Below, one piece after another: positions 3,872 through 49,172 of a stretch of 57,189 bases of DNA. Positions within the stretch are counted from its first letter, which is position 1; every line of letters begins with the position of its first letter. The translations under genes were made by a program, and so were the position numbers. Source of the stretch: a bacterium (lineage in GTDB: Bacteria; Patescibacteriota; Saccharimonadia; Saccharimonadales; UBA4665); NCBI GenBank assembly GCA_021811685.1, contig JAJZNT010000022.1:1-57189 (forward strand). The letters are read 5' to 3'. The notes beneath the pieces were generated by a model that saw nothing but the letters and a program-made list of their open reading frames with translations, had not been told where the DNA came from and did not search any database.

Positions 3872-3948
3872 TTTTAGTGGTAAGCAATTTTACGGCTTTA
3901 GGGGTATGGGTAGCCTATGATTGTAAATACAAACCAAAAGGAGGGGCT

Positions 3949-8061: not shown

Positions 8062-8513
8062 AGGTGCCGTCTTTCTAGGCTCAAACTTTCTAATAGCGAG
8101 TTTTAATTCCGAAGACTCTAATCATAAAAAGGCACAACGGCTGGCTTTTAGTATGGCCGAGCTAGATATAAAGTTATACATATCAAACTATATACTTCTT
8201 TAAGTGCTTACGGTCTTGTCTCAAAGAGTTAACCGAGAAACTGCAGTTGAAGTAGGGGATAGGTTACTAAATAGCGGAAACGTTGAATTAATTCACATTA
8301 ACGAAGAGCTCAATCGCCGGAGTTTGGAGATTTTTAAAGAGATCCAAACAAAAAACATGAGTGTCGTTGATTGATTGTAGTATCCTGGCAGTTCTCAATT
8401 ATGTAGGCATAAAGCAACCACTTACCTTTGACATGACTGGCTTTAAGCCGTTACGAGAACGCTTTTACTTTAGTATTATTAGGTTAATGCAATTTGTTCA
8501 CAAAGCCTCGTGA
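8051..8513 (+). pseudogene. decayed PIN-domain toxin gene
   Basis: MANKGAVFLGSNFLIA... (first Asp replaced by Gly). In-frame TAA at 8201. An apparent GATT duplication (gattgattg) shifts the frame before ...DCSILAVLNYVGIKQPLTFD. Confidence 0.55.
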
Positions 8514-8645
8514 ATAACCTCTTGTAAGCCTATCGGAAGCAAAGATATGTGGATTGCGGCATTGGCGTTGGAGCAAGATTATTTACTTGTAACACTTAAC
8601 TCAGATTTTAAGCAAACCCCAGACTTACTAATTGCCAAAATCTGA
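8514..8645 (+). pseudogene. C-terminal fragment of a VapC/PIN toxin
   Basis: Translates to ...GSKDMWIAALALEQDYLLVTLNSDFKQTPDLLIAKI*. This is the conserved PIN C-terminal third, with no N-terminal part upstream. Confidence 0.5.
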
Positions 8646-30125: not shown

Positions 30126-31034
30126 CTATTTATGATGATACTTGTCGTAAGAGGCTTTTAAGTGCGGATCTGTGATGTGAGTATATATCTGAGTGGTAGA
30201 GATGTTACTGTGACCAAGCATTACTTGGACCGTTCTTAAGTCTGCCCCGTTCATTAACAGGTCCGTACCGAAACTATGTCTCATGGTGTGCGGGCTTACG
30301 TGCTTAGTTATTCCTGCCAGCAGAGCATATCTGGCCACAAGTCGCTGAACACTTCTTGCGGTCAGCCTATAGAAGTTGCCGCTGAGGTCAACTTTCTTAT
30401 TGCCGCTGTAACGGATAAACAGGGCCTTGGAGTTGTCTGTTCGCTTATCCAGATAGTTCTCCAGCCACATAACGGCCTGGGGGCTTATAAACACCAGTCG
30501 GTCTTTTTGCCCCTTGCCCCTGACCATAAATTCGCGCCTCTTTAGGTTAATGTGCCCACGGTCCAAGTTGACCAGTTCGCTGACCCTTAATCCGCTGGCG
30601 AATAGCAGTTCAAGTATTGCCCGGTCTCTAAGTCCGATTGTAGTATTTGTATCCGGTTGATTTAGCAAACTCTCAATCTCGTCTTCATTTAAGAAAGTTA
30701 CTTGTTTGCGGTGTGTTTTAGCCAGTTCAATCTTGGCGGCGTCCATTGCTTCGATGTCCCGCTTGGCGCAGAACTTTAGAAAGCTTCTCAGGGCTATGAG
30801 GTGGTAGTTAAGGGTAAGCGAGCTAAGCTCGTCATTTGTATTTGTTCCCAGCCTGTTTAGCCACAGTCTCCATCGCCTGATTAGTTCAGGGTCAATATCG
30901 GCTACGTTAATATCTCCGGCAAAATCCATTAGCCTGGTAAGGTAATGGTCATAGTTGGCGATAGTTCGCTGCGACCGGTTTTGTTCTATCTCCAGATATT
31001 CTAAGAAGTCAGTTTTAGCTTTATTGAACTTCAC
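30126..31034 (-). CDS. tyrosine recombinase XerC/XerD family
   Basis: 302 aa with an N-terminal SAM-like domain and the catalytic R (ASGLRVSEL), HxxR (HTMRHSF) and H...Y (LGHSNISTTQIYTH). Confidence 0.85.
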   Translation of the reverse strand: MKFNKAKTDFLEYLEIEQNRSQRTIANYDHYLTRLMDFAGDINVADIDPELIRRWRLWLNRLGTNTNDELSSLTLNYHLIALRSFLKFCAKRDIEAMDAAKIELAKTHRKQVTFLNEDEIESLLNQPDTNTTIGLRDRAILELLFASGLRVSELVNLDRGHINLKRREFMVRGKGQKDRLVFISPQAVMWLENYLDKRTDNSKALFIRYSGNKKVDLSGNFYRLTARSVQRLVARYALLAGITKHVSPHTMRHSFGTDLLMNGADLRTVQVMLGHSNISTTQIYTHITDPHLKASYDKYHHK

Positions 31035-31612: not shown

Positions 31613-31687
31613 GCCCCTATAGTTCAATGGATAAAACAGCTCCGTCCTAAGGAGAAGCTGGAGGTTCGAATCCTTCTAGGGGCGCCA
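31613..31687 (+). tRNA. tRNA-Arg (anticodon CCT), CCA encoded
   Basis: Acceptor GCCCCTA/TAGGGGC, anticodon stem CTCC/GGAG with loop GTCCTAA, T-arm GGTTCGAATCC, 3' GCCA. Folded by hand. Confidence 0.8.
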
Positions 31688-31689
31688 TA

Positions 31690-32094
31690 TCAATTTGCTA
31701 CTACTATAAATAACATTTCAGGCATAACTTTCTTTAGAACCTCAAAGTCTTGGTCATAAGTAACTAAAACTCCTTTGAATTCTTTGGTTAGGGCAGCTAT
31801 CCATAAGTCATTATGGGAGAGCACCTTACCGTTCTTGTTACAATATAGCTGCAATTCAGAATATATATCTGTTGTTTTCATTGTGGGTATGGCTATACTT
31901 ACATTTGGTTGAGCTATAAACCTTTGTAGGGCTCTTTCATTAATTTCTTTCCTCGATCCCTTTATAAAACCATATTTAAGTTCTGCGACTACAGGGAGAG
32001 GTAGGCACAATTCATGCCTTCCCTTAAGCATAGTAACGGCCTCTTCTTTACCGTTGGCAATTGCTGTATAGAAATTAGTATCAAGATAAAGCAT
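31690..32094 (-). CDS. vapC: PIN-domain toxin VapC
   Basis: 134 aa with MLYLDTNFY...ELKYG...NDLWIAALT...LVTYDQDF. Paralog of 6244..6651 and 34969..35376. Confidence 0.8.
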   Translation of the reverse strand: MLYLDTNFYTAIANGKEEAVTMLKGRHELCLPLPVVAELKYGFIKGSRKEINERALQRFIAQPNVSIAIPTMKTTDIYSELQLYCNKNGKVLSHNDLWIAALTKEFKGVLVTYDQDFEVLKKVMPEMLFIVVAN

Positions 32095-32095
32095 T

Positions 32096-32341
32096 CTATT
32101 TTTTCAATTTATCTTTTTGAAGCTTATCTTCTTCTATTAGGGCAGTTATGGTCTCATTGTCCATGCCACTGCCGATAAACCAATCCAAAGAAGACTTAAG
32201 ATCTTCCTTAATAAAGGGAACTTTCTCTGAGAGTTCATCAATCACAACCTGATTAAGGCTCTTGTTACTAAGTTTAGCCTTTTTTCTTAAGTAGAGATTA
32301 ACCGATTCGGGCAAGTTACGTATAGTTAGTTGTGTAGTCAT
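32096..32341 (-). CDS. vapB: VapB-type RHH antitoxin
   Basis: MTTQLTIRNLPESVNLYLRKKAKLSNKSLNQVVIDEL. Start moved to the ATG at 32341, which sits 6 nt downstream of a -10 element. Confidence 0.7.
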   Translation of the reverse strand: MTTQLTIRNLPESVNLYLRKKAKLSNKSLNQVVIDELSEKVPFIKEDLKSSLDWFIGSGMDNETITALIEEDKLQKDKLKK

Positions 32342-32347
32342 GCAGGC

Positions 32348-32376
32348 AAGATAGCAAGCATGCATATATTTGTCAA
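32348..32376 (-). promoter_or_regulatory. promoter TTGACA-17-TATCTT, ATG 6 nt downstream (leaderless candidate)
   Basis: Minus strand reads TTGACAaatatatgcatgcttgcTATCTTgcctgcATG. The spacer contains the palindrome GCATGC. Confidence 0.4.
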
Positions 32377-32432: not shown

Positions 32433-33014
32433 ATGTCAAAGCGAAAGTCCGATGGGGGATCAAAGTATTTTGCTGATCAGTTTGATGATGAAGATGTAGT
32501 CTTCGTGTTTCGTAAACATCCTATAGTAATGCGAAAAGGATTAATTATCGGATTATTCGGGCCGCTTCTCGGGGTGATACCGGCTGCCGTTCATCCGGCT
32601 TATGGTATGGGTGTATTTATTGACGGATTGGTTGTAGGAGCGTTAGTCGGTCTTATTATATTTTTTCCTTCATGGATTGGTTGGTATTTCAGCGTCTTTA
32701 TAGTTACTACGCAGAGGTTCTTACAGATCAGACAAAAAGGTTTATTTTCCAGAAGCGTATCTGACTTGGGACTGCAGCAAATCCAGTCGGTAAGTTACGA
32801 AGTTTCCGGTATTCAGGCAACCCTACTGGGTTTTGGTACAATTACTATGAGGACATACGTAGGCGAAGTGGTTATCCATGATGTTCACCACCCTGCAAGA
32901 ATACAAAAGCAGCTGGTAGGTGTATTGAGGGATCTCGGAATAACCACAGTCAGTTATCCAGGATCTGCGGAAACGCAACTACAATCCGATGAAGAAGAAG
33001 TTGAAGAAGCTTAA
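32433..33014 (+). CDS. membrane protein with bacterial PH domain (YdbT/bPH_2-like)
   Basis: FVFRKHPIVMRKG, two TM helices, then TTQRFLQIRQKGLFSRSVSDLGLQQIQSVSYEV, the bPH pattern. Confidence 0.55.
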   Translation: MSKRKSDGGSKYFADQFDDEDVVFVFRKHPIVMRKGLIIGLFGPLLGVIPAAVHPAYGMGVFIDGLVVGALVGLIIFFPSWIGWYFSVFIVTTQRFLQIRQKGLFSRSVSDLGLQQIQSVSYEVSGIQATLLGFGTITMRTYVGEVVIHDVHHPARIQKQLVGVLRDLGITTVSYPGSAETQLQSDEEEVEEA

Positions 33015-34089
33015 GGTAAAATTACCTAAACCAAAACTACCGGGCAACATTAAGCCCTTTAAGAGACGCCCCGCACCCGAGGAAAGGCTCAAGGAGGCGT
33101 TTGCTAACGTCCCCAAGATTACTAACGAAACGGTTGCCGAGCACCGTGAGGATGTCTTATCCAGTGCCAGGAAGTATATCTATCCTCTTCAGCACTCCAG
33201 GAAGCGAATAGTAATTATTTCTTCCTCTATTATTGTGGCTGCTGTTGCGGGCTTTTTTATATACCTAGGGCTTGCTCTATATAATTTCCAGGACACTAAC
33301 GGCTTTATTTACGGAGTTACTCAAGTTATACCAGTACCGGTTGCTAAGGTTGGAAGTTCGTGGGTTTCTTATGAGAGCTATCTTTTTGAGCTAAGAAGGT
33401 ATATGCACTATTACGAGACCCAACAACAGGTGAACTTTTCTACTGAAAGTGGAAAGTTGCAGCTTGATAGGTATAAGCAGCAGGCAATGAATGAAGTCGT
33501 AACCGACGCATACGTAAAGCAACTAGCCAGCGAGTATAAGGTAAACGTATCCAACCAACAGGTTAATCAAGAAGTGTCTCTGGTACAAAGCCAGAACCGT
33601 CTAGGATCAAATCAACAGGAGTTTAACGCTGTCTTAAATGATTTCTGGGGCTGGAATGAGGGTGATTTTAAAAGGGAATTAAAATTACAGATGTTACAGC
33701 AGGCTGTTGTCGCAAAATTAGACACATCAACTGAGCAAAGAGCCCAGAGTGCGTTAAATAGTTTAAATCACGGAGCGGATTTCGCTAGTTTAGCAAAACA
33801 GGTCTCTGACGACTCATCCACTAAAAGCAGTGGCGGACAATATCCAGGCCCTATTACCGAGAACGATCCCAATATTGCACCGCAAGTTACCCAGGTGCTA
33901 TTTAGACTTAAGCCTGGACAACATTCAGGAATTATAAACACCGGCTACACTCTGGAAATCGTAGAACTGATATCTAAGCAGGGAAATAAGGTTCAAGCAG
34001 CTCATATATCCTTTAACCTTCAACCTATATCTACATTTATTGCGCCTTTAATGAAGGCTAACCCAGCACATTATTTTATTCATTTATAG
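32989..34089 (+). CDS. membrane-anchored peptidyl-prolyl isomerase (parvulin / PpiC-type, PrsA/SurA-like)
   Basis: Basic N-terminus, TM helix, then HGADFASLAKQVSDDSSTKSSGGQYPG...GQHSGIINTGYTLEIVEL, a rotamase motif. Confidence 0.65.
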   Translation: MKKKLKKLKVKLPKPKLPGNIKPFKRRPAPEERLKEAFANVPKITNETVAEHREDVLSSARKYIYPLQHSRKRIVIISSSIIVAAVAGFFIYLGLALYNFQDTNGFIYGVTQVIPVPVAKVGSSWVSYESYLFELRRYMHYYETQQQVNFSTESGKLQLDRYKQQAMNEVVTDAYVKQLASEYKVNVSNQQVNQEVSLVQSQNRLGSNQQEFNAVLNDFWGWNEGDFKRELKLQMLQQAVVAKLDTSTEQRAQSALNSLNHGADFASLAKQVSDDSSTKSSGGQYPGPITENDPNIAPQVTQVLFRLKPGQHSGIINTGYTLEIVELISKQGNKVQAAHISFNLQPISTFIAPLMKANPAHYFIHL

Positions 34090-34138
34090 ATCTAGGCGAC
34101 CTAGTTATTTATATTGAATAATTTAATTACTCATAGTG

Positions 34139-34660
34139 TTAAGCTGATGTATCTTTCGCTTCTTCTTTGGGTAATCTATATCTGCGCTTGGAGCTAAGTT
34201 GTGCCTTTTTTTGATCACGAGCTTTGCGATTTACGGGACCTGCGTACTTTTCTTTAAAGTCTTTAAAGAAGGCCTTAGCCAGGGATTTTGCTTCCGGCTC
34301 TTTAATAAGGCCTGAATCCATTATCGCCAATATGCCGGTTGCTTTTATTAATTCTGATTCAGCTTCAATCATTAATTTTTCTGCATTGTTTTTTGCACCT
34401 TCTACTATTCGTTCTGCATTCCTGCCATACCTTGATATTATGCTTCCTCGGCGGTTTGGCGAGTTCACTGCAGTAGACATGCCTTCTTTTTGGCTAGATA
34501 ATCCAAAATACTGCAATGCTTTTATTAAATTTTCTCTTCGGTAATTAAGATCAACAAATGCATATGTATAGTCTGTCTCTGGATGCGTTTTAATTTCTGC
34601 AGGCGGGCTGCTGCCCGGATCCATGAGGCTTGCCTGTATCGGTCTATCGTTAGTAGTCAT
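34139..34660 (-). CDS. hypothetical protein (basic C-terminus)
   Basis: 173-aa ORF, one nt downstream of the stop of 34662..34847. No family recognised. Confidence 0.4.
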   Translation of the reverse strand: MTTNDRPIQASLMDPGSSPPAEIKTHPETDYTYAFVDLNYRRENLIKALQYFGLSSQKEGMSTAVNSPNRRGSIISRYGRNAERIVEGAKNNAEKLMIEAESELIKATGILAIMDSGLIKEPEAKSLAKAFFKDFKEKYAGPVNRKARDQKKAQLSSKRRYRLPKEEAKDTSA

Positions 34661-34661
34661 A

Positions 34662-34847
34662 TTATTTTATAGTCATTGTATATTTAAGATTATCTTTTAC
34701 ACTGTGATTCTCGCCCAGCATTAATACGGAGCTGTAGCTAACTAGTTCGGCATAGTCTACAGGGGCTGCTTGGGCTGCGCTTTCTGCGCTGAGCGCTTCG
34801 GTGCTGGACCAAGGGTTTGGAATAGTGTCGTGTGTTTCTGGAGACAT
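34662..34847 (-). CDS. hypothetical small protein
   Basis: 61-aa ORF on the same strand, immediately upstream of 34139..34660. Confidence 0.3.
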   Translation of the reverse strand: MSPETHDTIPNPWSSTEALSAESAAQAAPVDYAELVSYSSVLMLGENHSVKDNLKYTMTIK

Positions 34848-34913
34848 AAGCTATACGTTAGAATAAGATTGAAAGTAAGTCAATCTCATACAGCAATAAC
34901 AACCAGTAAAAAC

Positions 34914-34960
34914 GAGATGTTTAAACACAAGCATAATGGCGGGCTGTAGTGGAACTATTT
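34914..34960 (-). repeat. cassette-boundary repeat R1
   Basis: Plus strand reads GAGATGTTTAAACACAAGCATAATGGCGGGCTGTAGTGGAACTATTT. Ends 8 nt from the vapC stop. Lacks the 11-nt spacer present in R2-R4. Confidence 0.7.
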
Positions 34961-34968
34961 CATGGAGT

Positions 34969-35376
34969 TTAGTTCTGTTCGTTAACTATAATAGCTCTTA
35001 ATTGCGGCAATTCCCCAAAGTCACCGTCCCTAGTAAATAAAACTCCACCAAGTTGTATTGTTGTAGCGGCAATCCAGAAGTCATTATTAGATAATGCTAA
35101 ACCATGTTGTCTGGCATAAGTTGCTAAGTCTGCATAAATAATTGACGTATCTTGGATGGGATTAGTTATACTGGCATGAAATTGTTGTTTAAATAGATCG
35201 TAAGTTTCTAGATTATTCGCTGTCTTACTACTATTAGCAAAGCCGAATCTTAATTCGGCATCTACAGCAAGAGGTATAGACAGCTCATCATATTTTTGTT
35301 CTGAGAATGCTTTAACGATATAATCCTTGTCGCTCAGCAAATTAGATAAAGCCGAGGTATCAAAAACAAGTGTCAT
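34969..35376 (-). CDS. vapC: PIN-domain toxin VapC
   Basis: 135 aa with LVFDTSAL...ELRFG...NDFWIAATT...LFTRDGDF. Confidence 0.8.
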   Translation of the reverse strand: MTLVFDTSALSNLLSDKDYIVKAFSEQKYDELSIPLAVDAELRFGFANSSKTANNLETYDLFKQQFHASITNPIQDTSIIYADLATYARQHGLALSNNDFWIAATTIQLGGVLFTRDGDFGELPQLRAIIVNEQN

Positions 35377-35648
35377 TATTCTTTGTCCTGTTTTAGTAAT
35401 GAGGCCCTATCAGACCACGATAAAGCCTCTTCTAATGATTCTTCGTCTTCTTGTCCTATTCTATGTTTGCTGAGAAATTGTTTCATCTCTAGATAACGCT
35501 TATCGCTATCTTCGATACCCACACTTTGACGCAATGCTTTTAGTACGTAACGATTTAAGCTTATGCCTTGCCGATTAGCCTTTTTAGTTAAAGCAGACTT
35601 AGTTGTTGGGTCAAGCCCCCTAATAGTTAGTTGTAGTTTACTGCTCAT
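35376..35648 (-). CDS. vapB: VapB-type RHH antitoxin
   Basis: MSSKLQLTIRGLDPTTKSALTKKANRQGISLNRYVLKAL. Its stop overlaps the vapC start by 1 nt. The 12-nt direct repeat TAATGCCTGCAT occurs twice around the -10 element. Confidence 0.7.
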   Translation of the reverse strand: MSSKLQLTIRGLDPTTKSALTKKANRQGISLNRYVLKALRQSVGIEDSDKRYLEMKQFLSKHRIGQEDEESLEEALSWSDRASLLKQDKE

Positions 35649-35728
35649 AATGCCTGCATTATATAGAATCTAATGCCTGCATGTAAATAGACGCATATAT
35701 CAATTTTAAATAAAAAATACCCCTATTG

Positions 35729-35786
35729 GAGATGTTTAAACATAAGCATAATAGCGGGCCGTAGCTGTCCAGGTTTGGAACTATTT
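35729..35786 (-). repeat. cassette-boundary repeat R2
   Basis: Plus strand reads GAGATGTTTAAACATAAGCATAATAGCGGGCCGTAG-ctgtccaggtt-TGGAACTATTT. Lies just 3' of the RelE-like gene. Confidence 0.7.
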
Positions 35787-35806
35787 AGCGGAACTCGATC
35801 TTAGCT

Positions 35807-36073
35807 CTAAGCGTAAAGTTGATCGTGAGTACCTACCATCATGAGTACAACTCTATTCTTTTTAAGCCTCAGGAAGTGTATCCTGAGGTCCTCTGCCGCA
35901 CTTATAGAATACTGCGGGTAATACTTGCCCTTTAATTGATGTATTCTAAGCTGTTTTGTGTTTTGATTGGTCATAAATAACTTTAGAGCTGTAAGCACTT
36001 GTGATTGTTGGTAACTATCTAACTGAGCCCACATTGCGTCATAACGTTTATGGGTTTCAACTTGCATGGCCAA
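35807..36073 (-). CDS. RelE/YafQ-family toxin
   Basis: 88 aa with ...LKLFMTNQNTKQLRIHQLKGKYYPQYSISAAEDLRIHF...VVLMMVGTHDQLY, a RelE/ParE-superfamily pattern. Confidence 0.65.
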   Translation of the reverse strand: MAMQVETHKRYDAMWAQLDSYQQSQVLTALKLFMTNQNTKQLRIHQLKGKYYPQYSISAAEDLRIHFLRLKKNRVVLMMVGTHDQLYA

Positions 36074-36347
36074 GGCTATTCAAATGCCTTTCGAGCTCTT
36101 CAAAAGTATTAAACGGCCCGCTTAAGTTTCGTCCGGCCTTAACATCTTCTTCTATCTTATCAAGTTCTTTAGCGATCTTCTCATTTGGCAAATATTCTTC
36201 TTCAAAAACTACTCTTCGCTCACTGACAGCTTCTCTAAGCTTATTTTCCACAATGGAACTTAAACTTAGACCCAACCTTTGGGCCAGCTTTTGGGCTTGC
36301 TGCTTTACGTCTGCGTCTATCTTAACTGTTACAGGTATTTGGCTCAT
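36057..36347 (-). CDS. RelB/DinJ-family antitoxin
   Basis: MSQIPVTVKIDADVKQQAQKLAQRLGLSLSSIVENKL, the DinJ-type RHH. Overlaps the toxin gene by 17 nt. Confidence 0.65.
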   Translation of the reverse strand: MSQIPVTVKIDADVKQQAQKLAQRLGLSLSSIVENKLREAVSERRVVFEEEYLPNEKIAKELDKIEEDVKAGRNLSGPFNTFEELERHLNSLGHAS

Positions 36348-36353
36348 ACATAC

Positions 36354-36382
36354 ATAGTATTACTATGAATGTACTTCGTCAA
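36354..36382 (-). promoter_or_regulatory. promoter TTGACG-17-TACTAT, ATG 6 nt downstream (leaderless candidate)
   Basis: Minus strand reads TTGACGaagtacattcatagtaaTACTATgtatgtATG. Confidence 0.4.
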
Positions 36383-36445
36383 TATACCACGTAATGGTTC
36401 AATAGTTTGGAATCACCTAAGCAAGGAGAATTAATTGAAACTAAG

Positions 36446-36473
36446 GCGTATTAGTGCGAATGGACCCCATTTT
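36446..36473 (-). repeat. cassette-boundary repeat R5 (degenerate, internally deleted)
   Basis: Plus strand GCGTATtagTGCGAATGGAccccATTTT aligns to R3 (GCGTAT...GGCGAATGGA...CTATTTT) with the GCTTGGCGGGCCG core deleted. Confidence 0.4.
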
Positions 36474-36689
36474 CTCTACGTGGGTATCGGCCTTGTGTTT
36501 TTATCTTGCCTTGGTTTGGTAAGATTTTGGTTTTGCAGTTACATAGTCTCGCAATACTTGCAACTCCATTGACGATGACAAATATAGCACTCTTAGGTAT
36601 AGAGCGCTAACTTTAACAAAGGGTTTACTTGCTATGAGGGTATAGTCGCCTTTTCGTTTAATTGATTATTACGTAGATAGATTACGGTA

Positions 36690-36968
36690 TTAGTGTCTAA
36701 AAGTATCATGTTGTAAACTATCTCTTCTGTTTTCCCAAACTCTCTGCTCACGTTGCCATTTACTAGGGTCGGTAACTCCCTTCATAGGCCCACGTTTTTT
36801 ACCATGGTTAATTAAAGCATCAAGTGCATGTCGTTGTTTAATCAAAGGCTCTTCAACGTTTACTGTGTCACCTAGTCTTAAATTGTTATCGTCAATATAC
36901 CGCTTAGGCACACGTATAGCATAAGAGTTACCTGTTTTAGTAATAATTCCTTGTACCATAGTTTGCAT
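36690..36968 (-). CDS. AbrB/MazE/SpoVT-family antitoxin-like protein with no intact partner toxin
   Basis: MQTMVQGIITKTGNSYAIRVPKRYIDDNNLRLGDTVNVEEP, a swapped-hairpin motif. The track N-terminal extension covers repeat R6. The next 200 nt downstream hold no long ORF. Confidence 0.55.
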   Translation of the reverse strand: MQTMVQGIITKTGNSYAIRVPKRYIDDNNLRLGDTVNVEEPLIKQRHALDALINHGKKRGPMKGVTDPSKWQREQRVWENRRDSLQHDTFRH

Positions 36969-37031
36969 TGTACTTACATTGTCAAGTATTTGTGTTTCAA
37001 TACAAAGAGTAAGATGCTCTGAAAATACAGA

Positions 37032-37064
37032 TTGGCGGGACATCGAGTCGGACTTCGAAAATTA
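37032..37064 (-). repeat. cassette-boundary repeat R6 (degenerate)
   Basis: Plus strand TTGGCGGGACATCGAGTCGGACTTCGAAAATTA shares TTGGCGGG and about 20 of 34 positions with R3. Abuts the PIN stop at 37062. Confidence 0.4.
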
Positions 37065-37454
37065 GCTATCGGCCTTTACCCTCTTTAGGATACTGTCATC
37101 AAAAGTTAGAATATCTGAAACCTTTTTACTGTCCCTTAATGCCAGTAGCCAGCAATCTTCAAACGATAAAGGCTTCTCTTTATTAAACAATTCTACGGTT
37201 GCTTCAAGAAGTTCCCTATCTGGAATTGAGAATATATTACTAGAGAGTAAAGATTCATATATTTGAACAACTTGTTTTTTATTTAATTCATACACAGACC
37301 TAAGAGCATAGCCAAACTCAGCAAATATTACCCTATCTAGTAATATGCTATTCGGTTTAGCTTCTGTGATCATTTTTGAAGCTTTCTCAAATAACTCTTC
37401 ATTATCCTTGGTGAAGTAACGAACTAGGACAGAGCTGTCTATTGCTACTGCCAT
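37062..37454 (-). CDS. PIN-domain toxin
   Basis: 130 aa with AVAIDSSVLVRYF...AEFGYAL...EDCWLLAL...ILTFDDS. Confidence 0.75.
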   Translation of the reverse strand: MAVAIDSSVLVRYFTKDNEELFEKASKMITEAKPNSILLDRVIFAEFGYALRSVYELNKKQVVQIYESLLSSNIFSIPDRELLEATVELFNKEKPLSFEDCWLLALRDSKKVSDILTFDDSILKRVKADS

Positions 37455-37708
37455 TTAAGTCCTTTTTTGTAAAAGCTAAACCTAGCATTTTTTATATCTT
37501 CATCTGTAGCTGATTTAATATTACGCTTCTTGATATCAGCTGCTATAGAACTAGCTACATCTTTCATGGAAGGGACTTTTTCTATTACTAAATAACTATC
37601 GCCTGTCCGGAACTGAACCTTATCATTAGCAGATATGCCCAACTCTTCTCTTGCTTCCTTTGGAATAGTGACTTGGAACTTGCTAGTAATACTATACGTT
37701 GTACTCAT
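37445..37708 (-). CDS. AbrB/SpoVT-family antitoxin
   Basis: MSTTYSITSKFQVTIPKEAREELGISANDKVQFRTGD. Overlaps the PIN gene by 10 nt. Start moved to the ATG at 37708. Confidence 0.65.
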   Translation of the reverse strand: MSTTYSITSKFQVTIPKEAREELGISANDKVQFRTGDSYLVIEKVPSMKDVASSIAADIKKRNIKSATDEDIKNARFSFYKKGLKWQ

Positions 37709-37715
37709 ACCACTA

Positions 37716-37743
37716 ATTATAGTATTACTAAACTTTTTGTCAA
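37716..37743 (-). promoter_or_regulatory. promoter TTGACA-16-TATAAT, ATG 7 nt downstream (leaderless candidate)
   Basis: Minus strand reads TTGACAaaaagtttagtaatacTATAATtagtggtATG. Confidence 0.45.
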
Positions 37744-38078
37744 TACCATTATTTATACTCTGCTGAAGTTGATCTTGCCACAGCGTAAACACTTCCCCGT
37801 CGTATAATTGTGATCAAAGAAACCTTGCTCAACTCACCATATAACTCTATGTTTGATGCCAACCTTACCGCGACACAACTTGCGAGTATCTTTGCTTGAG
37901 TGGAACTTAATAGCTGGCTCGCTATGATCATGTTTAAAATCACGCTTTAATATGCCGCCTGCACGCCAACTATCTGAATCTTCTTTAATTCTCATAGTTT
38001 CATTTTATCATCACGTTATAATAATGGATTTTTGAACAGTGGTGACGTACGGTTTGAGGTGAATTTCGAACAGAGGTA

Positions 38079-38123
38079 GCGTATGCTTGGCGGGCCGTGG
38101 CGAATGGAGTCTGGAACTATTTT
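38079..38123 (-). repeat. cassette-boundary repeat R3
   Basis: Plus strand reads GCGTATGCTTGGCGGGCCGTGG-cgaatggagtc-TGGAACTATTTT. The PIN stop codon (CTA on the plus strand, 38117-38119) lies inside the GGAACTATT arm. Confidence 0.7.
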
Positions 38124-38497
38124 ATGATAAGTACTGGTAGCTCTGTGTGACTATAGTCCTTGAAGTGGCCATCAATTGTAATAATCTCGTCACATACCGC
38201 TTCTTCAGCCGAAATTGCTTGTAAACAATCCTCAAAGTCTTTACCGTCGTATCTGATACGTGCCGTGGACGTGGTTTTTTCAGTTATAGGCAGCACCTCC
38301 CATACCGATAATAGACTATCTACAGCTTCAGTATTAACCTTATATCTTTCTGCCATGTACCAAACAATATGCACAGTTAAAGCACTAATGGAGTATTGAT
38401 TATCTGGGTCTTGAATTAAAGACTGGCATTTGTCAGATAATTTCCTATCAAAAAGTATTTCAAGTAATACGTTGGCATCTATAAAAACGTGTTTCAC
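38117..38497 (-). CDS. PIN-domain toxin
   Basis: 126 aa with VFIDANVLLEILF...GKDFEDCLQ...IITID. Paralog of 38904..39275. Confidence 0.75.
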   Translation of the reverse strand: MKHVFIDANVLLEILFDRKLSDKCQSLIQDPDNQYSISALTVHIVWYMAERYKVNTEAVDSLLSVWEVLPITEKTTSTARIRYDGKDFEDCLQAISAEEAVCDEIITIDGHFKDYSHTELPVLIIK

Positions 38498-38499
38498 TT

Positions 38500-38769
38500 C
38501 TAAGAATTTCTTTCTGCTAAAGCCTCGCCATAAAGTTCTTTTGTTGTCTTATATTCATCTGTTAAACCCCTGTTACGTGCAAATGATTTTCGGTTACGAT
38601 TGAGCATTGCAGCAACACTAGCACCGTTGCCTTTAATATTATTTTGTACAGGTCTGAGTGAGCCAACTACTTCTGAATGGCGAATGATAAAAACCTCTTC
38701 ACCACTCTGTAGTCTATCTAAGTATTCACTTAAATTACTTCTCAACTTCTTTGCAGTAACTGTTACCAT
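38500..38769 (-). CDS. Phd/YefM-type antitoxin
   Basis: MVTVTAKKLRSNLSEYLDRLQSGEEVFIIRHSEVVGSLRPV. Start moved to the ATG at 38769, which follows an AAAGGA SD. Confidence 0.65.
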   Translation of the reverse strand: MVTVTAKKLRSNLSEYLDRLQSGEEVFIIRHSEVVGSLRPVQNNIKGNGASVAAMLNRNRKSFARNRGLTDEYKTTKELYGEALAERNS

Positions 38770-38857
38770 AATTATCCTTTTAATTATATTTATAGTGTAC
38801 GCTTTAGAGATAACTTTGTCAATATTACCAAATAAAAAAGCACTCAACAATTAAAGT

Positions 38858-38902
38858 GCGTATGCTTGGCGGGCCGTAGCTTTGCAGGTGTGGAACTATT
38901 TT
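38858..38902 (-). repeat. cassette-boundary repeat R4
   Basis: Plus strand reads GCGTATGCTTGGCGGGCCGTAG-ctttgcaggtg-TGGAACTATTTT. Ends 1 nt from the PIN stop at 38904. Confidence 0.7.
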
Positions 38903-38903
38903 G

Positions 38904-39275
38904 CTAACGAAGCAACACCACAGCCATATCATTAGAATATTTCTTAGATAAAGGTTCGTCCAAAGTGACTAGTCGGCTACAATTTTCTCGGACCGCACAA
39001 GCCACTTGAAAGGCGTCTTCAAAATCCTTGCCATTAAAACGTGCGAACGCCCATTGCGCATCAGCATCTACAATTGGAAGCCAGACGAAACTTCCTAGAA
39101 ACGCTTTGACAGGTTCCCAAGGTAACTTGTCTCTCTCGACAAAGTACATAACCAAGTCAAGCGTAAGAGTTGAAATAGCCTTGTCTTCATCACTATTAAG
39201 AAAATCTTCGCAAACGGTTGCTCGAGCACGTCTTAAAATCACTTCCAATAGCACGTTAGCGTCAACAAAGGTCAT
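38904..39275 (-). CDS. PIN-domain toxin
   Basis: 123 aa with TFVDANVLLEVIL...GKDFEDAFQ...LVTLD. Confidence 0.75.
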   Translation of the reverse strand: MTFVDANVLLEVILRRARATVCEDFLNSDEDKAISTLTLDLVMYFVERDKLPWEPVKAFLGSFVWLPIVDADAQWAFARFNGKDFEDAFQVACAVRENCSRLVTLDEPLSKKYSNDMAVVLLR

Positions 39276-39556
39276 TTGTTGTAATACTTTCTGTCTCGAA
39301 GCTCAGTAATTTGTTCTTTGATGCTACGCTTGTCATCTTTTACCGCATAGCTTGCGAGCGCATCGTGTAAACTCTGTAGGCTCCTGCGAATAGCCTCTGG
39401 TGAGCCACGTCGCAATGCTCCGTGAACGGGCTCCACTGGCTGCAAAACTCCAATAACACTGTGTCTGTAACTTAACTGGACAGACTTTCCTTGCCGTAAG
39501 TTACGAATGACTTGCTGCATATTTTCACGTAGTTGTTTAGTTGTTATAACGGTCAT
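39272..39556 (-). CDS. Phd/YefM-type antitoxin
   Basis: MTVITTKQLRENMQQVIRNLRQGKSVQLSYRHSVIGVLQPV. Overlaps the PIN gene by 4 nt. Confidence 0.65.
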   Translation of the reverse strand: MTVITTKQLRENMQQVIRNLRQGKSVQLSYRHSVIGVLQPVEPVHGALRRGSPEAIRRSLQSLHDALASYAVKDDKRSIKEQITELRDRKYYNK

Positions 39557-39563
39557 GCTCTAA

Positions 39564-39592
39564 GTTTAACTTATATGACTATTACTTGTCAA
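39564..39592 (-). promoter_or_regulatory. promoter TTGACA-17-TTAAAC plus an 11-nt inverted-repeat operator, ATG 7 nt downstream
   Basis: The inverted repeat AAGTTTAACTT (39562-39572) / AAGTTAAACTT (39591-39601) brackets the promoter. Its distal arm touches the last nt of tRNA-Asp. Confidence 0.4.
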
Positions 39593-39600
39593 GTTAAACT

Positions 39601-39677
39601 TGGCGGGCCCGACCGGATTCGAACCGGCGATCTCCTCCGTGACAGGGAGGCGTGATAGGCCTCTTCACTACGAGCCC
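39601..39677 (-). tRNA. tRNA-Asp (anticodon GTC), CCA encoded
   Basis: Hand fold: acceptor GGGCTCG/CGGGCCC, D-stem GTGA/TCAC, anticodon stem CCTCC/GGAGG with loop CTGTCAC, T-arm GCCGG-TTCGAAT-CCGGT, 3' GCCA. Confidence 0.8.
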
Positions 39678-39730
39678 GCATAAACGACAGGGGTAATAAT
39701 ACCAGAACGAAGGCTGTATTAAAATACTCC

Positions 39731-39804
39731 TGGTGCGGGTGAGGGGAGTTGAACCCCTGTCTCAGCCTTGGGAAGGCCATATAATGCCGCTATACGACAC
39801 CCGC
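39731..39804 (-). tRNA. tRNA-Gly (anticodon CCC), CCA encoded
   Basis: Acceptor GCGGGTG/CACCCGC, anticodon loop TTCCCAA, T-arm AGGGGTTCAACTCCCCT, 3' ACCA. Confidence 0.8.
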
Positions 39805-39880
39805 TGGAGCCACCTGTCGGGATTGAACCGACGACCTACACGTTACGAATGTGTCGCTCTACCGACTGAGCTAAGGTGGC
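39805..39880 (-). tRNA. tRNA-Thr (anticodon CGT), CCA encoded
   Basis: GCCACCTTAGCTCAGTCGGTAGAGC..., anticodon loop TTCGTAA, T-arm GGTTCAATCC, 3' TCCA. Its 3' A abuts the first nt of tRNA-Gly. Confidence 0.8.
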
Positions 39881-39932
39881 ATCAAATTATCCGTAATTAT
39901 AGCAAAAGCTGTTACAATATACCCCAGTATAT

Positions 39933-40289
39933 ATGGCAACCACGAGGACTTATTTCCGAGATCATTTTGTTTTGTTTTTGCTCACAAGTAACGTTTTTCT
40001 GGCGTTATTTACGGCCATTTTTGTTTTTTTAAGACTATCTACTTCACACAATAGCAGTTATATAATTCAATATCGTTCTAACCTGGGAGTTAGCGCTTTT
40101 CAGACCGGAAGTATAAGCGAAATGATTAGTTTCGGGATCTTTGCATTGCTAATTTTAGCTATTAGCGTAGCGATTAGTGTTAGGGCGTATTCTATAAATC
40201 GGAATTTGTCCATTGGCGTATTATCGGCCGGAATCATCCTTACAATTTTAGACATTATTGTAAGCAATGCGCTATTAGCTTTGCACTAG
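39933..40289 (+). CDS. small polytopic membrane protein
   Basis: 118 aa with three hydrophobic helices. Lies immediately upstream of the GT2 gene. Confidence 0.45.
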   Translation: MATTRTYFRDHFVLFLLTSNVFLALFTAIFVFLRLSTSHNSSYIIQYRSNLGVSAFQTGSISEMISFGIFALLILAISVAISVRAYSINRNLSIGVLSAGIILTILDIIVSNALLALH

Positions 40290-40294
40290 AGACA

Positions 40295-41926
40295 ATGAAA
40301 GATATTGAGATACCTTATGAGAAAGACCGCCACGGACATTACCGGCTATTTGAAATTTTACCAGGTGCTTTAAGCTGGTTACTACTATTGCTGCCCATCA
40401 TACTTAGCTTCATAAATATAACTGCTGCAGTAGTCTTCATCCTAGCCTACCTGTTGATTTACTTTGTCCGTTCTGTCGGCTTTAGTCTTGCCGGGTTTAA
40501 GGGCTATAGGATGATGAAAAGAGACATAAAGCTGGACTGGAGAGCTTTAATTGAAGACGTTGAGCGTAATGGCATAGTCGAAGGTGACGGAGTAAAACGG
40601 CCTCAGTGGCATATGAGAAATATTGAAAGAAAAAAAACCATATCGAATCCGTTTAAGCCATCTGAACTTATTCATGTTGCAATTATTGCCACCGTAAACG
40701 AGGGACGAGAAGTGCTAGAGCCTACCATCCGTTCAATTATTAACGGGCATCACGACAACTCTCGCCTCATTCTAATAATCGCTTATGAGGGCAGGGCGGG
40801 CGAGGAGACAGAGAAGCGTGTTCTTGACCTAGTAGATGATTATAAGAGTCAGTTTATGGACATGTTTGCGGTTAAACATCCCGCAAATACCCCGGGAGAA
40901 GTAATAGGCAAGGGGTCGAATATTACTTATGCCGGGCGACAACTTAAAACGTATCTGGAGTCTAAGAATATAGATCCCGAAACCGTCATTGTTACAACTC
41001 TAGATTCGGACAATCGTCCTGACGAACGTTATTTTTTGGCGGTTAGTTATGCGTTTTGTCTAGTGTCCGATCCTATACGGGCTTCCTACCAGCCTTTACC
41101 GATGTTTACTAACAACATATGGGATGCTCCGACAATGATGAGGGTGATTGCTACCGGAAACACGGTATTTTATATAGTGGGTACTACAAGGCCGCACAGG
41201 GTACGCAATTTCTCAGCCCATGCCCAGTCCATGAGGGCTTTAATAGACATGGACTTTTGGAGTGTTAGAACTATTGTTGAAGACGGGCACCATTTTTGGC
41301 GCAGCTACTTTCATTTTGACGGGGACTACCAGGTATATCCTTTAAGTATTCCTGTCTATCAGGATGCGGTTTTGGCCGAAGGCTATATTAAGACCATTAA
41401 AGCTCAATTTACTCAGCTTAGAAGATGGACTTACGGCGCTTCAGATGTCGCCTATGTGGCAGATAAAGGGTTTTTCAGGAAGAATTCTATTCCTAAAGCA
41501 GATCTAATAGGTAAGTTCTTCAATCTGTTAGAAGGGCATGTTACTTGGGCTACGGGTACCATTCTAGTTTTCGGTGCGGCATTCATTCCACCCCTAATCA
41601 GTCCGCAAAGCTTTGCAGCTAACGAGATACCATTGATAGTTAGTAGAATTCAAAGAGTAGGCTTGATAGGTCTATTGGCTACGGTTTATGTGTGCATGGT
41701 AACTTTGCCGCCTAGGCCCAGGCGTTACCGTCGACATCGTTCCGTTCTTATGGTGGTTCAGTGGGTATTAGCACCAGTTACGAGTATTGCCTTTGCTTCT
41801 TTAGCGGCTTTTAATTCTCAGACCAGGCTAATGTTTAAGCGTTATCTGAGTAAGTTTGATGTTACCGAGAAGGCGGTTGTAGTAGAAAAGGGTAAGGTTA
41901 TAAGCACTAGGCCTGATCCCAGTTAG
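40295..41926 (+). CDS. family-2 glycosyltransferase, processive synthase-like membrane protein
   Basis: 543 aa with N- and C-terminal TM helices, the catalytic motifs TLDSDNRPD and ED, and QLRRW (the Q(R/Q)xRW signature of processive beta-glycan synthases). Confidence 0.7.
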   Translation: MKDIEIPYEKDRHGHYRLFEILPGALSWLLLLLPIILSFINITAAVVFILAYLLIYFVRSVGFSLAGFKGYRMMKRDIKLDWRALIEDVERNGIVEGDGVKRPQWHMRNIERKKTISNPFKPSELIHVAIIATVNEGREVLEPTIRSIINGHHDNSRLILIIAYEGRAGEETEKRVLDLVDDYKSQFMDMFAVKHPANTPGEVIGKGSNITYAGRQLKTYLESKNIDPETVIVTTLDSDNRPDERYFLAVSYAFCLVSDPIRASYQPLPMFTNNIWDAPTMMRVIATGNTVFYIVGTTRPHRVRNFSAHAQSMRALIDMDFWSVRTIVEDGHHFWRSYFHFDGDYQVYPLSIPVYQDAVLAEGYIKTIKAQFTQLRRWTYGASDVAYVADKGFFRKNSIPKADLIGKFFNLLEGHVTWATGTILVFGAAFIPPLISPQSFAANEIPLIVSRIQRVGLIGLLATVYVCMVTLPPRPRRYRRHRSVLMVVQWVLAPVTSIAFASLAAFNSQTRLMFKRYLSKFDVTEKAVVVEKGKVISTRPDPS

Positions 41927-48450: not shown

Positions 48451-48525
48451 CGGGGTGTAGCGCAGTGGTAGCGCGTACGGCTGGGGGCCGTGAGGTCGCA
48501 GGTTCAATCCCTGTCACCCCGACCA
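48451..48525 (+). tRNA. tRNA-Pro (anticodon GGG), CCA encoded
   Basis: CGGGGTGTAGCGCAGTGGTAGCGC, anticodon loop CTGGGGG, T-arm GGTTCAATCC, acceptor 3' CACCCCG, then ACCA. Confidence 0.8.
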
Positions 48526-48543: not shown

Positions 48544-48572
48544 TTGACAATGTATATACATTTGTATATCAT
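48544..48572 (+). promoter_or_regulatory. mazEF promoter TTGACA-17-TATCAT with a perfect 14-nt palindromic operator in the spacer
   Basis: AATGTATATACATT (48549-48562) is a perfect palindrome between -35 and -10. A GGAGG SD precedes the ATG at 48592. Confidence 0.5.
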
Positions 48573-48591
48573 AAGAGCGGAGGACAAGATT

Positions 48592-48840
48592 ATGACAACG
48601 ACATCTAGTATTAAAAAATGGGGCAATAGTTTAGCTCTAAGAATACCTTCTTCGGTAGCTCAAGATTTGGATTTATCAGAAAATAGCATAATACAGATTA
48701 CTAGTGACGGATTAGTTGCTACCATTCGTCCTAAAAAGGCCAAGAAACAATCTCTTAAGTACTTAGTAGCTGCAATAACGCCAGATAATAGACATGAAGA
48801 ACTTGATTGGGGTAAACCAGTGGGCGGAGAGGTATGGTAA
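48592..48840 (+). CDS. mazE: MazE/AbrB-family antitoxin
   Basis: MTTTSSIKKWGNSLALRIPSSVAQDLDL, the MazE N-terminal motif. Overlaps mazF by 7 nt. Confidence 0.75.
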   Translation: MTTTSSIKKWGNSLALRIPSSVAQDLDLSENSIIQITSDGLVATIRPKKAKKQSLKYLVAAITPDNRHEELDWGKPVGGEVW

Positions 48841-49172
48841 GCAAATATATACCCGATAGAGGTGATATAGTTTGGCTAAATTTTAATCCCCAGCAAGGAC
48901 ACGAACAAGCAGGTGTAAGGCCAGCGCTAGTATTGTCACCTAAGAGCTATAATAGGAATTCTAAATTGATGCTTGCATGCCCAATAACATCCAAGGTTAA
49001 GGGATACCCCTTTGAGGTAAGAGTTTTGGCTAAGAAAATTGATGGGGCTGTGTTAGCTGACCAAGTAAAGAATCTTGACTGGACTATAAGGAATGTATCT
49101 TTCGTTGAAAAGGTTCCTTATGATGTCTTAGAACAAGTGAACGAGTTTATTGAGACACTTCTTAGAGATTAG
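48834..49172 (+). CDS. mazF: MazF/PemK-family endoribonuclease toxin
   Basis: YIPDRGDIVWLNFNPQQGHEQAGVRPALVLSPKSYN...CPITSKVKGYPFEV, the MazF pattern. Confidence 0.85.
   Translation: MVSKYIPDRGDIVWLNFNPQQGHEQAGVRPALVLSPKSYNRNSKLMLACPITSKVKGYPFEVRVLAKKIDGAVLADQVKNLDWTIRNVSFVEKVPYDVLEQVNEFIETLLRD

Follow-up and report, generated by a model that had tools for sequence, protein, structure and literature searches.

The tRNA-Asp locus and its cassettes

An array of toxin-antitoxin (TA) gene pairs, separated by short related repeats, was analyzed at the 3' end of a tRNA-Asp gene in a Saccharimonadales bacterium (GenBank assembly GCA_021811685.1, contig JAJZNT010000022.1). The whole stretch of 57 kb is referred to as the window, loci elsewhere are labelled with L numbers, and protein homologs of the large serine recombinase (LSR) family whose sequence recurs in the repeats are labelled with P numbers. 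The repeats are most likely scars of the attR type (right attachment sites) left by LSR insertion at the tRNA 3' end, a process that would produce integron-like cassette arrays across Saccharibacteria.

Upstream of tRNA-Asp, ARAGORN located a tRNA-Gly and then a tRNA-Thr gene. Beyond the 3' end of tRNA-Asp lie six gene pairs, all on the minus strand, the first of which begins 44 nucleotides (nt) beyond the tRNA. Six minus-strand TA pairs had been described here in an earlier note on this DNA, and ARAGORN, the open reading frames (ORFs) and Pfam bore this out. The tRNA and the units that follow it, termed cassettes c1 to c6, are:

39601-39677, minus strand: tRNA-Asp(GTC) (ARAGORN and Rfam)
39601-39609: core of the predicted bacterial attachment site (attB) at the 3' end of tRNA-Asp, TGGCGGGCC on the plus strand, which is GGCCCGCCA reverse-complemented
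38903-39600, minus strand: cassette c1, Phd-like antitoxin without a Pfam family (39272-39556) and PIN toxin (38904-39275) (ORF list, Pfam)
38124-38866, minus strand: cassette c2, Phd antitoxin (38500-38769) and PIN toxin (38117-38497), the stop codon of which lies inside repeat R3 (ORF list, Pfam)
37066-38087, minus strand: cassette c3, 53-amino-acid (aa) ORF (37834-37995), MazE/AbrB antitoxin (37445-37708) and PIN toxin (37062-37454) (Pfam)
36418-37032, minus strand: cassette c4, MazE/AbrB antitoxin (36690-36968), PIN remnant and decayed sequence (Pfam, tblastn)
35788-36394, minus strand: cassette c5, RelB antitoxin (36057-36347) and YafQ/RelE-like toxin (35807-36073) (Pfam)
34962-35751, minus strand: cassette c6, FitA-like ribbon-helix-helix (RHH) antitoxin (35376-35648) and PIN toxin (VapC, 34969-35376) (Pfam)

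The best promoter-like matches precede the antitoxins of c1, c2, c3, c5 and c6. The first begins 9 nt past the tRNA end (TTGACA-18-TAAACT at 39592-39563), and c3 carries a perfect match (TTGACA-16-TATAAT at 37743-37716). The G+C content of the array is 36-39%, compared to roughly 39-51% across most of the remaining window. The toxin remnant suspected in c4 was verified by tblastn with the intact toxin of L008 (73% over 37 aa, E = 2e-16): approximately 21 N-terminal PIN codons persist at 36647-36709, with the start codon at about 36709 and similarity stopping at 36647. The 53-aa ORF of c3 is a shortened version of an 80-aa cysteine-motif protein (..CLHCGK..), which is found in full at L034 (1457-1696) and precedes the same MazE/PIN pair in both L034 and L053.

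Repeats at the cassette boundaries

Five genuine repeats (R4, R3, R6, R2 and R1) close cassettes, and a decayed candidate was found at the end of c4. They are read on the plus strand and consist of a core, which corresponds to the tRNA 3' end, and an adjoining segment that is designated the P' arm:

38867-38902, plus strand: R4, core TGGCGGGCC and P' arm encoding RAVALQVWNYF (nhmmer E = 1.2e-13)
38088-38123, plus strand: R3, core and P' arm encoding RAVANGVWNYF (nhmmer E = 2.7e-10)
37033-37065, plus strand: R6, repeat of a second subfamily, core TGGCGGGAC and arm encoding DIESDFEN*
36395-36417, plus strand: candidate decayed repeat closing c4, TGGTTCAATAGTTTGGAATCACC (alignment to a repeat of L034)
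35752-35787, plus strand: R2, core with a G-to-A change (TAGCGGGCC) and P' arm encoding RAVAVQVWNYL (nhmmer E = 1.1e-11)
34937-34961, plus strand: R1, the outermost repeat, core TGGCGGGCT, 11-nt spacer deleted (nhmmer E = 0.014)

The four copies R1 to R4 that had been listed as intact in the earlier note, R1 lacking the spacer, were all recovered, and the nhmmer repeat profile found no further copy in the window. R1 is a dead scar, as the deletion of its 11-nt spacer destroys the reading frame discussed below. For the left arm of the repeat (GGCGGGCYGTRG), five matches with at most one mismatch were counted in the window against 0.56 expected, a number that was reached in none of 100 shuffles. 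Four of the five lie inside the array; the fifth, at 8859, is located inside an ORF and was therefore attributed to chance. Exact copies of the right arm number four in the window, each of them within the array.

Two further elements had been proposed. R6, previously regarded as a degenerate copy, instead represents a second subfamily (TGGCGGGACATCGAGTCGGAYTT, read as WRDIESDF; the R6 codons are TGG CGG GAC ATC GAG TCG GAC TTC), which is also found in the arrays of L040, L043 (two copies) and L049. A putative R5 at 36446-36473 was not supported: it yields no nhmmer match and has just 9 nt in common with R3. The segment 36395-36417 is the better decayed candidate, as it aligns with the L034 repeat at 3872-3909, beside the start of the homologous c5 cassette, while alone it is not significant with nhmmer.

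The DNA of R1 to R4 did not form a stable hairpin on either strand (-1.5 to -7.7 kcal/mol, z-scores of -0.85 to +2.26 relative to shuffled sequences), and a terminator-like hairpin sits outside the repeat. Owing to this lack of folding, the repeat is neither an attC site, a repetitive extragenic palindromic (REP) element nor a terminator. The pair of GTTRRRY and RYYYAAC motifs (R''/R' boxes) is absent from the repeats, and an Rfam search of positions 34000-40500 at E <= 5 returned only the three tRNAs and noise. A Xer/dif-like site (11-6-11) or pdif module was rejected by inspection, since the arms are not mutual inverted repeats and the spacer measures 11 nt.

The repeat family marks the tRNA-Asp locus in related genomes

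An exact-pattern scan of one genome per species yielded 49 loci, of which 47 originate from metagenome-assembled genomes (MAGs) labelled as, or resembling, Saccharimonadales/Saccharibacteria, and the spacer in these matches almost always measures exactly 11 nt. The loci were examined as 8-kb stretches around the exact matches, and copies were then found with an nhmmer profile built from them. This profile search revealed same-orientation arrays of up to six copies per stretch. In total, 92 repeats were detected in 47 genome loci, with a median spacing of 754 nt and a single orientation in 46 of the 47. A tRNA-Asp gene is present in 24 of these loci, and the 46 repeats of these loci are all found past its 3' end, on the other strand. 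The scan of metagenomes provided 167 repeats at 80 loci, with a single orientation in 80/80, and again every repeat that shares a locus with tRNA-Asp (54/54) is on the other strand and beyond the 3' end of the tRNA. A scan of IMG/VR with the repeat pattern gave no matches.

Large contigs of 543-950 kb contain just one or two repeat stretches each, and the element is therefore locus-specific and not genome-wide. The proposed profile search of related genomes thus addressed one question raised in the earlier note: within the stretches examined, the copies mark cassette ends and are confined to the tRNA-Asp locus, which does not fit a genome-wide REP-like element. The tRNA-Asp gene is intact in all loci and the displaced tRNA fragment comprises 9 nt only. 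An 11-mer identity between repeat and tRNA had been noted; in the window, CTTGGCGGGCC is indeed common to R3, R4 and the tRNA-Asp end, but in other genomes only 9 nt are conserved (TGGCGGGCC, the reverse complement of GGCCCGCCA). L001 reads CTGGCGGGCC at the tRNA, and position -2 varies across 56 copies. This 9-bp core within tRNA-Asp is conserved in every related locus that was examined.

The cassettes carry more than TA genes. Pfam analysis of 120 ORFs on the cassette strand identified PIN (16), MazE (9), YafQ/ParE (6) and GNAT (5) proteins as well as a glyoxalase, a GDSL lipase, HisD, HisG, a cation-efflux protein, WhiB and many ORFs without a family. Three loci with the repeat (L027, L046 and L052) are labelled 'Candidatus Dormiibacterota'; L027 and L052 also contain tRNA-Asp, and L027 has SurA-like, tRNA-Arg and NDK-sized genes in Saccharimonadales order. 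These are probably mis-binned contigs.

The repeat matches the C-terminal codons of a large serine recombinase

Read opposite to the TA genes, the repeat spells W-R-A-V-(A/V)-x-(Q/E)-(V/I)-W-N-Y-F, a coding signature that had been missed in the earlier note. The variability among 56 non-redundant copies has a period of three and is highest at the third codon position, followed by the first and the second. The 11-nt spacer, which had been described as freely variable, varies with the same period. The substitutions either keep the amino acid or replace it conservatively: GCC/GCT, GTA/GTG, CAG/GAG and GTN/ATH occur among the main copies, and AAC/AAT and TAT/TAC among the weaker ones. Conservation begins sharply at the T of TGGCGGGCC, where TGG is the complement of the tRNA CCA end, and fades about 36 nt later. 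No copy is located within a long ORF: stop codons are found 0-10 codons upstream and, in 5 of 61 copies, immediately before the first conserved codon. Variation of the coding type in copies that no long ORF spans indicates that the sequence evolved as a coding sequence elsewhere.

Two other coding assignments were tried and rejected. The minus-strand frame in which the variable positions would be synonymous is interrupted by a TAG stop codon, and in the codon-aligned antisense frame the first position would vary more than the third, unlike in a coding sequence.

The matching gene was identified at L031, where an ORF of 520 aa adjoins tRNA-Asp and comprises Resolvase, Recombinase and Zn_ribbon_recom domains. 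This ORF ends with ...NPDW-RARPDSNRRSPP* and crosses the core in the frame of the repeat into the antisense strand of tRNA-Asp, while the repeat is found 6.2 kb from the tRNA, at the other end of the element. The analysis was extended to 120 LSR homologs (49-75% identity), which were sorted by their C-terminal tails. The majority (89/120) end in W-RARPD(S/L)N..., a tail that is fused to the tRNA antisense strand and represents the integrated state. Others retain the repeat peptide as their tail (P0028 of L055, W-RAVTSEVWNYF; P0082 of L056, W-RAIAEQVWNYF; P0100, W-RSITLEVWNYF), and the R6 peptide likewise occurs at the end of P0051 and P0104 (W-RDIESDFRT) and in the unsplit tail of the L129 LSR (W-RNIESDFRTIIL). 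The repeat peptide is the native C-terminus of a Saccharimonadales LSR family. Because the tails match either the repeat peptide or the tRNA antisense strand, the attachment site of the mobile element (attP) is placed inside the 3' end of the LSR gene. It is predicted to occupy the last ~40 nt, in which the W-R-A codons form the core TGGCGGGCC and the codons for (V/L)(A/T)x(Q/E)(V/I)WNYF form the P' arm. Among the repeats, P' arms of the RAVA, RALTEA and RDIESDF types are distinguished. Both hybrid junctions were observed, with the LSR gene leading through the core into the tRNA body on one side and the core leading into the P' arm on the far side.

The left flanks of 121 junctions were scored with a position-specific scoring matrix (PSSM), and LSR-tail coding sequence was detected only where an LSR gene is present. 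Scores are marginal for R6 and for the common cassette-start type (..YHKSS.LSTW). Left of R6, approximately 17-20 nt of LSR-like coding sequence (SENTDW) are kept, which is the flank with the marginal score.

Circular, integrated and decaying elements

Free and integrated forms of the LSR elements were both found. L055 is a circular contig of 5.73 kb (SRR6263248) whose ends overlap by 30 nt, and the same circle, opened at a different point, was recovered from another sample as L054. The L055 element encodes an LSR with an unsplit attP (tail ...W-RAVTSEVWNYF) together with two internal cassettes, each of which ends in a repeat. L129 has the same layout, and L056 looks circular too. The integrated state is exemplified by L063 (JGI 3300056678), in which an intact 3.6-kb LSR element (repeat, 349-aa ORF, terS-like gene, 76-aa ORF, LSR) adjoins tRNA-Asp and 11 older repeats lie beyond it. 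The terS-like gene of this element (orf137, 8110-8523) was identified by its match to a small terminase subunit (phrog_4102, E = 7e-20). Decaying LSR genes at the locus were detected in L030, L148 and L001 (6468-6700).

Several additional features of these elements were recorded. Small LSR elements carry a terS-like gene (L063, 8110-8523) or a DUF5681 gene (L054, 3585-3932), and a conserved ORF of 76-93 aa (L063, 8774-9004; L054, 4209-4484) overlaps the LSR start. These genes suggest a phage-satellite-like lifestyle, and the small ORF is a candidate directionality factor. At L001 (6468-6710), the LSR pseudogene still continues at its 3' end into a decayed P' arm (GGAT-AGACAGGCC-TTAACGGAAGCTATATGGATTATTTT); such an unsplit attP-like junction in a chromosome is what a tandem insertion beside an older element would create.

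Cassettes recur as discrete units

Homologs of cassettes c1 to c5 were identified in nine other loci at 67-83% nt identity, in other positions and with other neighbors. Cassette c1 is found core to core in different array positions at L001, L025, L035 and L049 (69-71% nt identity), c2 at L008 and L014 (79-80%), the whole c3 unit at L034 and L053 (83%), intact versions of c4 at L008 and L040, and c5 at L034 (72%). The clearest comparison is provided by a MazE/PIN cassette shared by L006 and L053; its two copies are 96% identical over precisely the interval between cores, and their downstream neighbors differ. In L053, this cassette starts directly after the tRNA CCA; in L006, its first nucleotide is unchanged but the CCA before it belongs to a repeat, and an LSR-less TA cassette of 0.72 kb lies precisely between this cassette and the tRNA. 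Exact core-to-core junctions of this kind can be produced by site-specific recombination at the core and cannot be produced by random decay. The suggestion that the repeats are recombination boundaries and not by-products of gene duplication is therefore upheld. A comparison between strains had also been proposed: cassettes do occupy other positions in other genomes, whereas no polymorphism was seen within the strain of the window.

A proposed serine-recombinase route to cassette arrays

These observations can be assembled into a model in which the idea of serial tRNA-targeted insertions that leave attachment-site scars, raised in the earlier note, appears essentially right. LSRs of approximately 515-540 aa would ride on small Saccharimonadales elements (~3.6-6 kb) and integrate at the 3' end of tRNA-Asp. 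Integration would rebuild the tRNA and set the LSR gene antisense beside it with a swapped tail (RPDSNRRSPP*), while the core and the P' arm would be left at the far end of the inserted DNA. The coding signature opposite the cassettes would be explained by this displaced piece of the LSR gene. New DNA is predicted to enter at the tRNA and to push older units outward, and entry may occur even when the outer flank of the core is the start of a cassette, as the L063 arrangement suggests.

We infer the following route for the entry of LSR-less cassettes into the array. Each junction of P' arm, core and cassette start could serve as an attR-like partner. Excision via a distal repeat would capture cassettes, as in the layouts of L055 and L129, whereas excision via a proximal repeat would drop the distal cassettes, which would then abut the tRNA core exactly. 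Recombinase modules may also be lost by deletion, for which R6 with its LSR-like left flank is a candidate case, and TA cassettes probably accumulate since they are hard to lose. We tentatively propose that Saccharimonadales possess their own serine-recombinase counterpart of the integron, a reading that is possible although somewhat short of an even chance. The 3' end of tRNA-Asp would be the entry site and the C-terminal codons of the LSR the cassette site, and visiting elements of 4-6 kb would actively capture single LSR-less cassettes, deliver them and reshuffle them among genomes, either through mini-circles or by partial excision.

Several points weigh against the serine-recombinase model as a whole. 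Recombination at this locus is deduced from sequence comparison. Canonical serine integrases recombine attP only with an intact attB and require both half-sites; entry at a tRNA with a replaced outer half and the use of internal repeats as attR would need relaxed half-site specificity, that is, tolerance of a variable outer half-site. No conserved sequence was detected on the cassette-start side of the core in the copies compared, and a symmetry scan of five attP sites gave a best match fraction of 0.36 with no clear center. Some tails of the P0028 type could be tandem junctions rather than free attP sites. No LSR gene or gene fragment is present in the window, so that the link to the LSR rests on related genomes and the array of the window is a passive LSR-less remnant, which could be mobilized only by an incoming element. 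Contigs of the window's own strain, which match the array or break inside it, show no cassette-level polymorphism. The 80 metagenome loci contained no circular contig made up of cassettes only, and none was seen elsewhere.

Alternative explanations

The closest alternative assigns the mobility to the cassettes themselves. LSR-less cassettes would excise core to core as mini-circles, and an LSR encoded elsewhere would re-insert them at the tRNA core. The precise insertion of the 0.72-kb TA cassette between the tRNA CCA and the 96%-identical cassette, the core-to-core extent of the homologous units and the presence of an own promoter directly after the core in each cassette would all be accounted for. 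The missing cassette-only circles and the missing half-site on the cassette-start side of the core speak against it, and delivery by composite elements followed by partial excision fits the same data with fewer new assumptions. Mobilization in trans by this route is thus considered unlikely.

Still less probable is a scenario of pure decay, in which the repeats are the same attachment-site scars but each cassette is the remnant of a separate full LSR element whose recombinase module was deleted, and in which cassettes never moved as units. LSR pseudogenes or stubs do occur at the locus in L030, L148 and L001, the flank of R6 retains LSR-like codons, and the c3 region at 37709-38078 looks like junk. 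Nevertheless, random deletions would not generate an identical start nucleotide after the core (L006/L053, and c1 in L025, L035 and L049). LSR-tail coding sequence should not then be restricted, as it is among the 121 left flanks, to junctions at which an LSR gene is present, and a circular element already holds complete internal cassettes with their repeats.

It is very improbable that the repeats are attC sites used by a tyrosine recombinase (an absent IntI or the Xer-like enzyme encoded at 30126-31034) and that the tRNA end serves as attI. The single orientation, the repeat after each gene pair and the TA cargo are as in chromosomal integrons, and the tyrosine recombinase gene lies 3.9 kb from the array in a gene neighborhood that recurs in relatives. 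However, neither strand of the repeats folds (z-scores up to +2.3), R''/R' boxes are lacking, and the C-terminus of the LSR explains the repeat codon by codon. The recombinase scores as XerC/D/A and remains far below the integron integrase threshold (TIGR02249, 129.8 versus a cut-off of 265), and its gene keeps its synteny with NDK and tRNA-Arg in relatives. The integron-array reading of the earlier note therefore failed for want of an attC hairpin and an integron integrase, and its candidate enzyme is of the Xer type, whereas the enzyme that matches the sites is the LSR absent from the window.

A function of the repeat in its own right, as a transcript 3' end or terminator, a tRNA-like RNA motif or a translated micropeptide, is equally remote: the position of the repeat just past the last stop codon of each cassette, its tRNA-like ending ...GGCCCGCCA and its peptide-like conservation are set against the missing stable structure and Rfam match, the terminator-like hairpin outside the repeat and the frameshift in R1. 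A pseudo-tRNA was rejected, as an alignment by eye revealed no T-arm geometry and a TTC-to-CCA distance about 6 nt too long. A micropeptide gene was likewise rejected for lack of a conserved start codon and for the upstream stop codons (0-10 codons away, and directly before the first conserved codon in the five copies mentioned above).

Relation to known systems

The proposed LSR system works like an integron and is still more similar to a composite staphylococcal cassette chromosome (SCC) island; it also resembles tycheposon islands and is a member of none of these groups. Ccr enzymes can use alternative pairs of sites, so that part or the whole of a composite SCC island can excise. In SCC elements as well as here, a large serine recombinase targets the 3' end of a single conserved gene, which is restored when the DNA is inserted; short direct repeats of the integration site lie between tandem elements and remnants, and some units lack the recombinase (PsiSCC). 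Some SCC islands contain six to eight copies of the integration site, and a ccr-less PsiSCCmec has been described (PMC3900703). Here, in contrast, the target is tRNA-Asp instead of rlmH and the host belongs to the Patescibacteria. The repeat consists of the C-terminal codons of the recombinase and not of those of the target gene, and the units are much smaller (0.4-1.3 kb) and are mostly TA pairs. The LSR itself is distant, with scores of 27-48 bits against NCBIfam Ccr models whose cut-offs are 700-900.

Integrons likewise consist of compact, co-oriented cassettes that each end in a recombination site, with the newest beside a fixed entry site; TA cassettes are common, and cassettes are shared between genomes in different order. 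Unlike integrons, the tRNA-Asp arrays have no IntI and no folded single-stranded attC hairpin, the entry site is the 3' end of a tRNA, most cassettes have their own promoter, and the class and chemistry of the enzyme differ.

As in archaeal viruses and plasmids of the SSV type, the attP of the LSR elements is part of the recombinase ORF and corresponds to a tRNA gene. The ORF is cut in two upon integration, one piece of it is left beside the insert, and old pieces remain as traces of earlier integration events. SSV1, studied by She and colleagues, reportedly carries its attP inside the int gene, which is partitioned on integration. The SSV-type enzymes are archaeal tyrosine recombinases that lose a large part of the protein, whereas the bacterial LSR loses only its last ~12-30 residues and gains a tail encoded by the tRNA antisense strand.

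Tycheposon and Islander elements also integrate at tRNA genes and are separated by partial tRNA copies, and some carry a satellite-like terS gene, as does the L063 element. In tycheposon islands, older elements are displaced outward by newly arriving ones, and remnants as well as partial tRNA repeats stay behind (bioRxiv 10.1101/2020.12.28.424599). Elements of this type mostly encode tyrosine recombinases (910/937), and 27/937 encode an LSR (bioRxiv 10.1101/2020.12.28.424599). Their attachment-site repeats are longer tRNA fragments, while the tRNA-derived part measures 9 nt here and the rest is recombinase coding sequence; the recombinase here is of the serine type, and the cassettes are single operons in strict orientation. 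No description of the present system was found in the papers searched on serine recombinases, tRNA genes or integrative elements in Saccharibacteria and Patescibacteria.

Implications

Saccharibacteria are ultrasmall epibionts with genomes of approximately 0.6-1 Mb. To our knowledge, few mobile elements have been recognized in this group, and genetic tools are scarce in Patescibacteria. The tRNA-Asp locus emerges as a conserved hot spot for variable Saccharibacteria genes, including TA, GNAT and metabolic cassettes, and it is very probably fed by the LSR family. A bacterial LSR with attP in its own 3' end is an unusual design, and as a consequence every integration would leave a datable, lineage-specific recombinase signature. 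If the proposed counterpart of the integron is real, it would provide tiny-genome episymbionts with a general route of gene capture and exchange as well as with a ready-made integration system. The attP/attB pair predicted at nucleotide resolution, the small enzymes and the natural circles make the LSR a candidate tool for site-specific integration in Patescibacteria. For genome annotation, short ORFs called across the repeats and recombinase tails ending in '...RARPDSNRRSPP' should be regarded as artefacts of integration.

Observations around the array

The orientation of tRNA-Asp and its array relative to the neighboring SurA-like gene varies between genomes (window 32989-39880 versus L019, L025, L030, L043 and L053). 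The array and the SurA-like gene converge in four cases (the window, L008, L009 and L021) and point the same way in the others, which implies at least one inversion of the segment.

Three independent assemblies of the window's strain (ERZ27237454, ERZ27237460 and SRR13221994) break inside the array, at about 36011, at 36376-36524 and at 37355. Such breaks are as expected of population heterogeneity or of repeat-induced graph branching at cassette boundaries. In L001 (GCA_027426835.1, DAICEL010000009.1), 13 kb to the right of the array align to the window at 98% identity even with c1, at only ~70%, as part of the alignment, whereas the genes to the left of the array are just 67-69% identical. 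This pattern reflects either a chimeric MAG contig with its join in the tRNA cluster or a genuine recombination breakpoint at this position.

Two more TA modules adjoin tRNA genes in the window. A seventh pair (FitA-like RHH/PIN, 31690-32365, minus strand) is convergent with tRNA-Arg (31613-31687) and ends 2 nt from its 3' end. This pair is missing from the same place in L001, and it is flanked neither by a repeat of the tRNA-Asp type nor by an obvious attachment-site duplication. A MazE/PemK pair (48544-49172, plus strand), which was assigned by Pfam via the matching genes of L001 to L003, is located 19 nt beyond tRNA-Pro (48451-48525) and represents the third tRNA-adjacent TA module within the same 57 kb.

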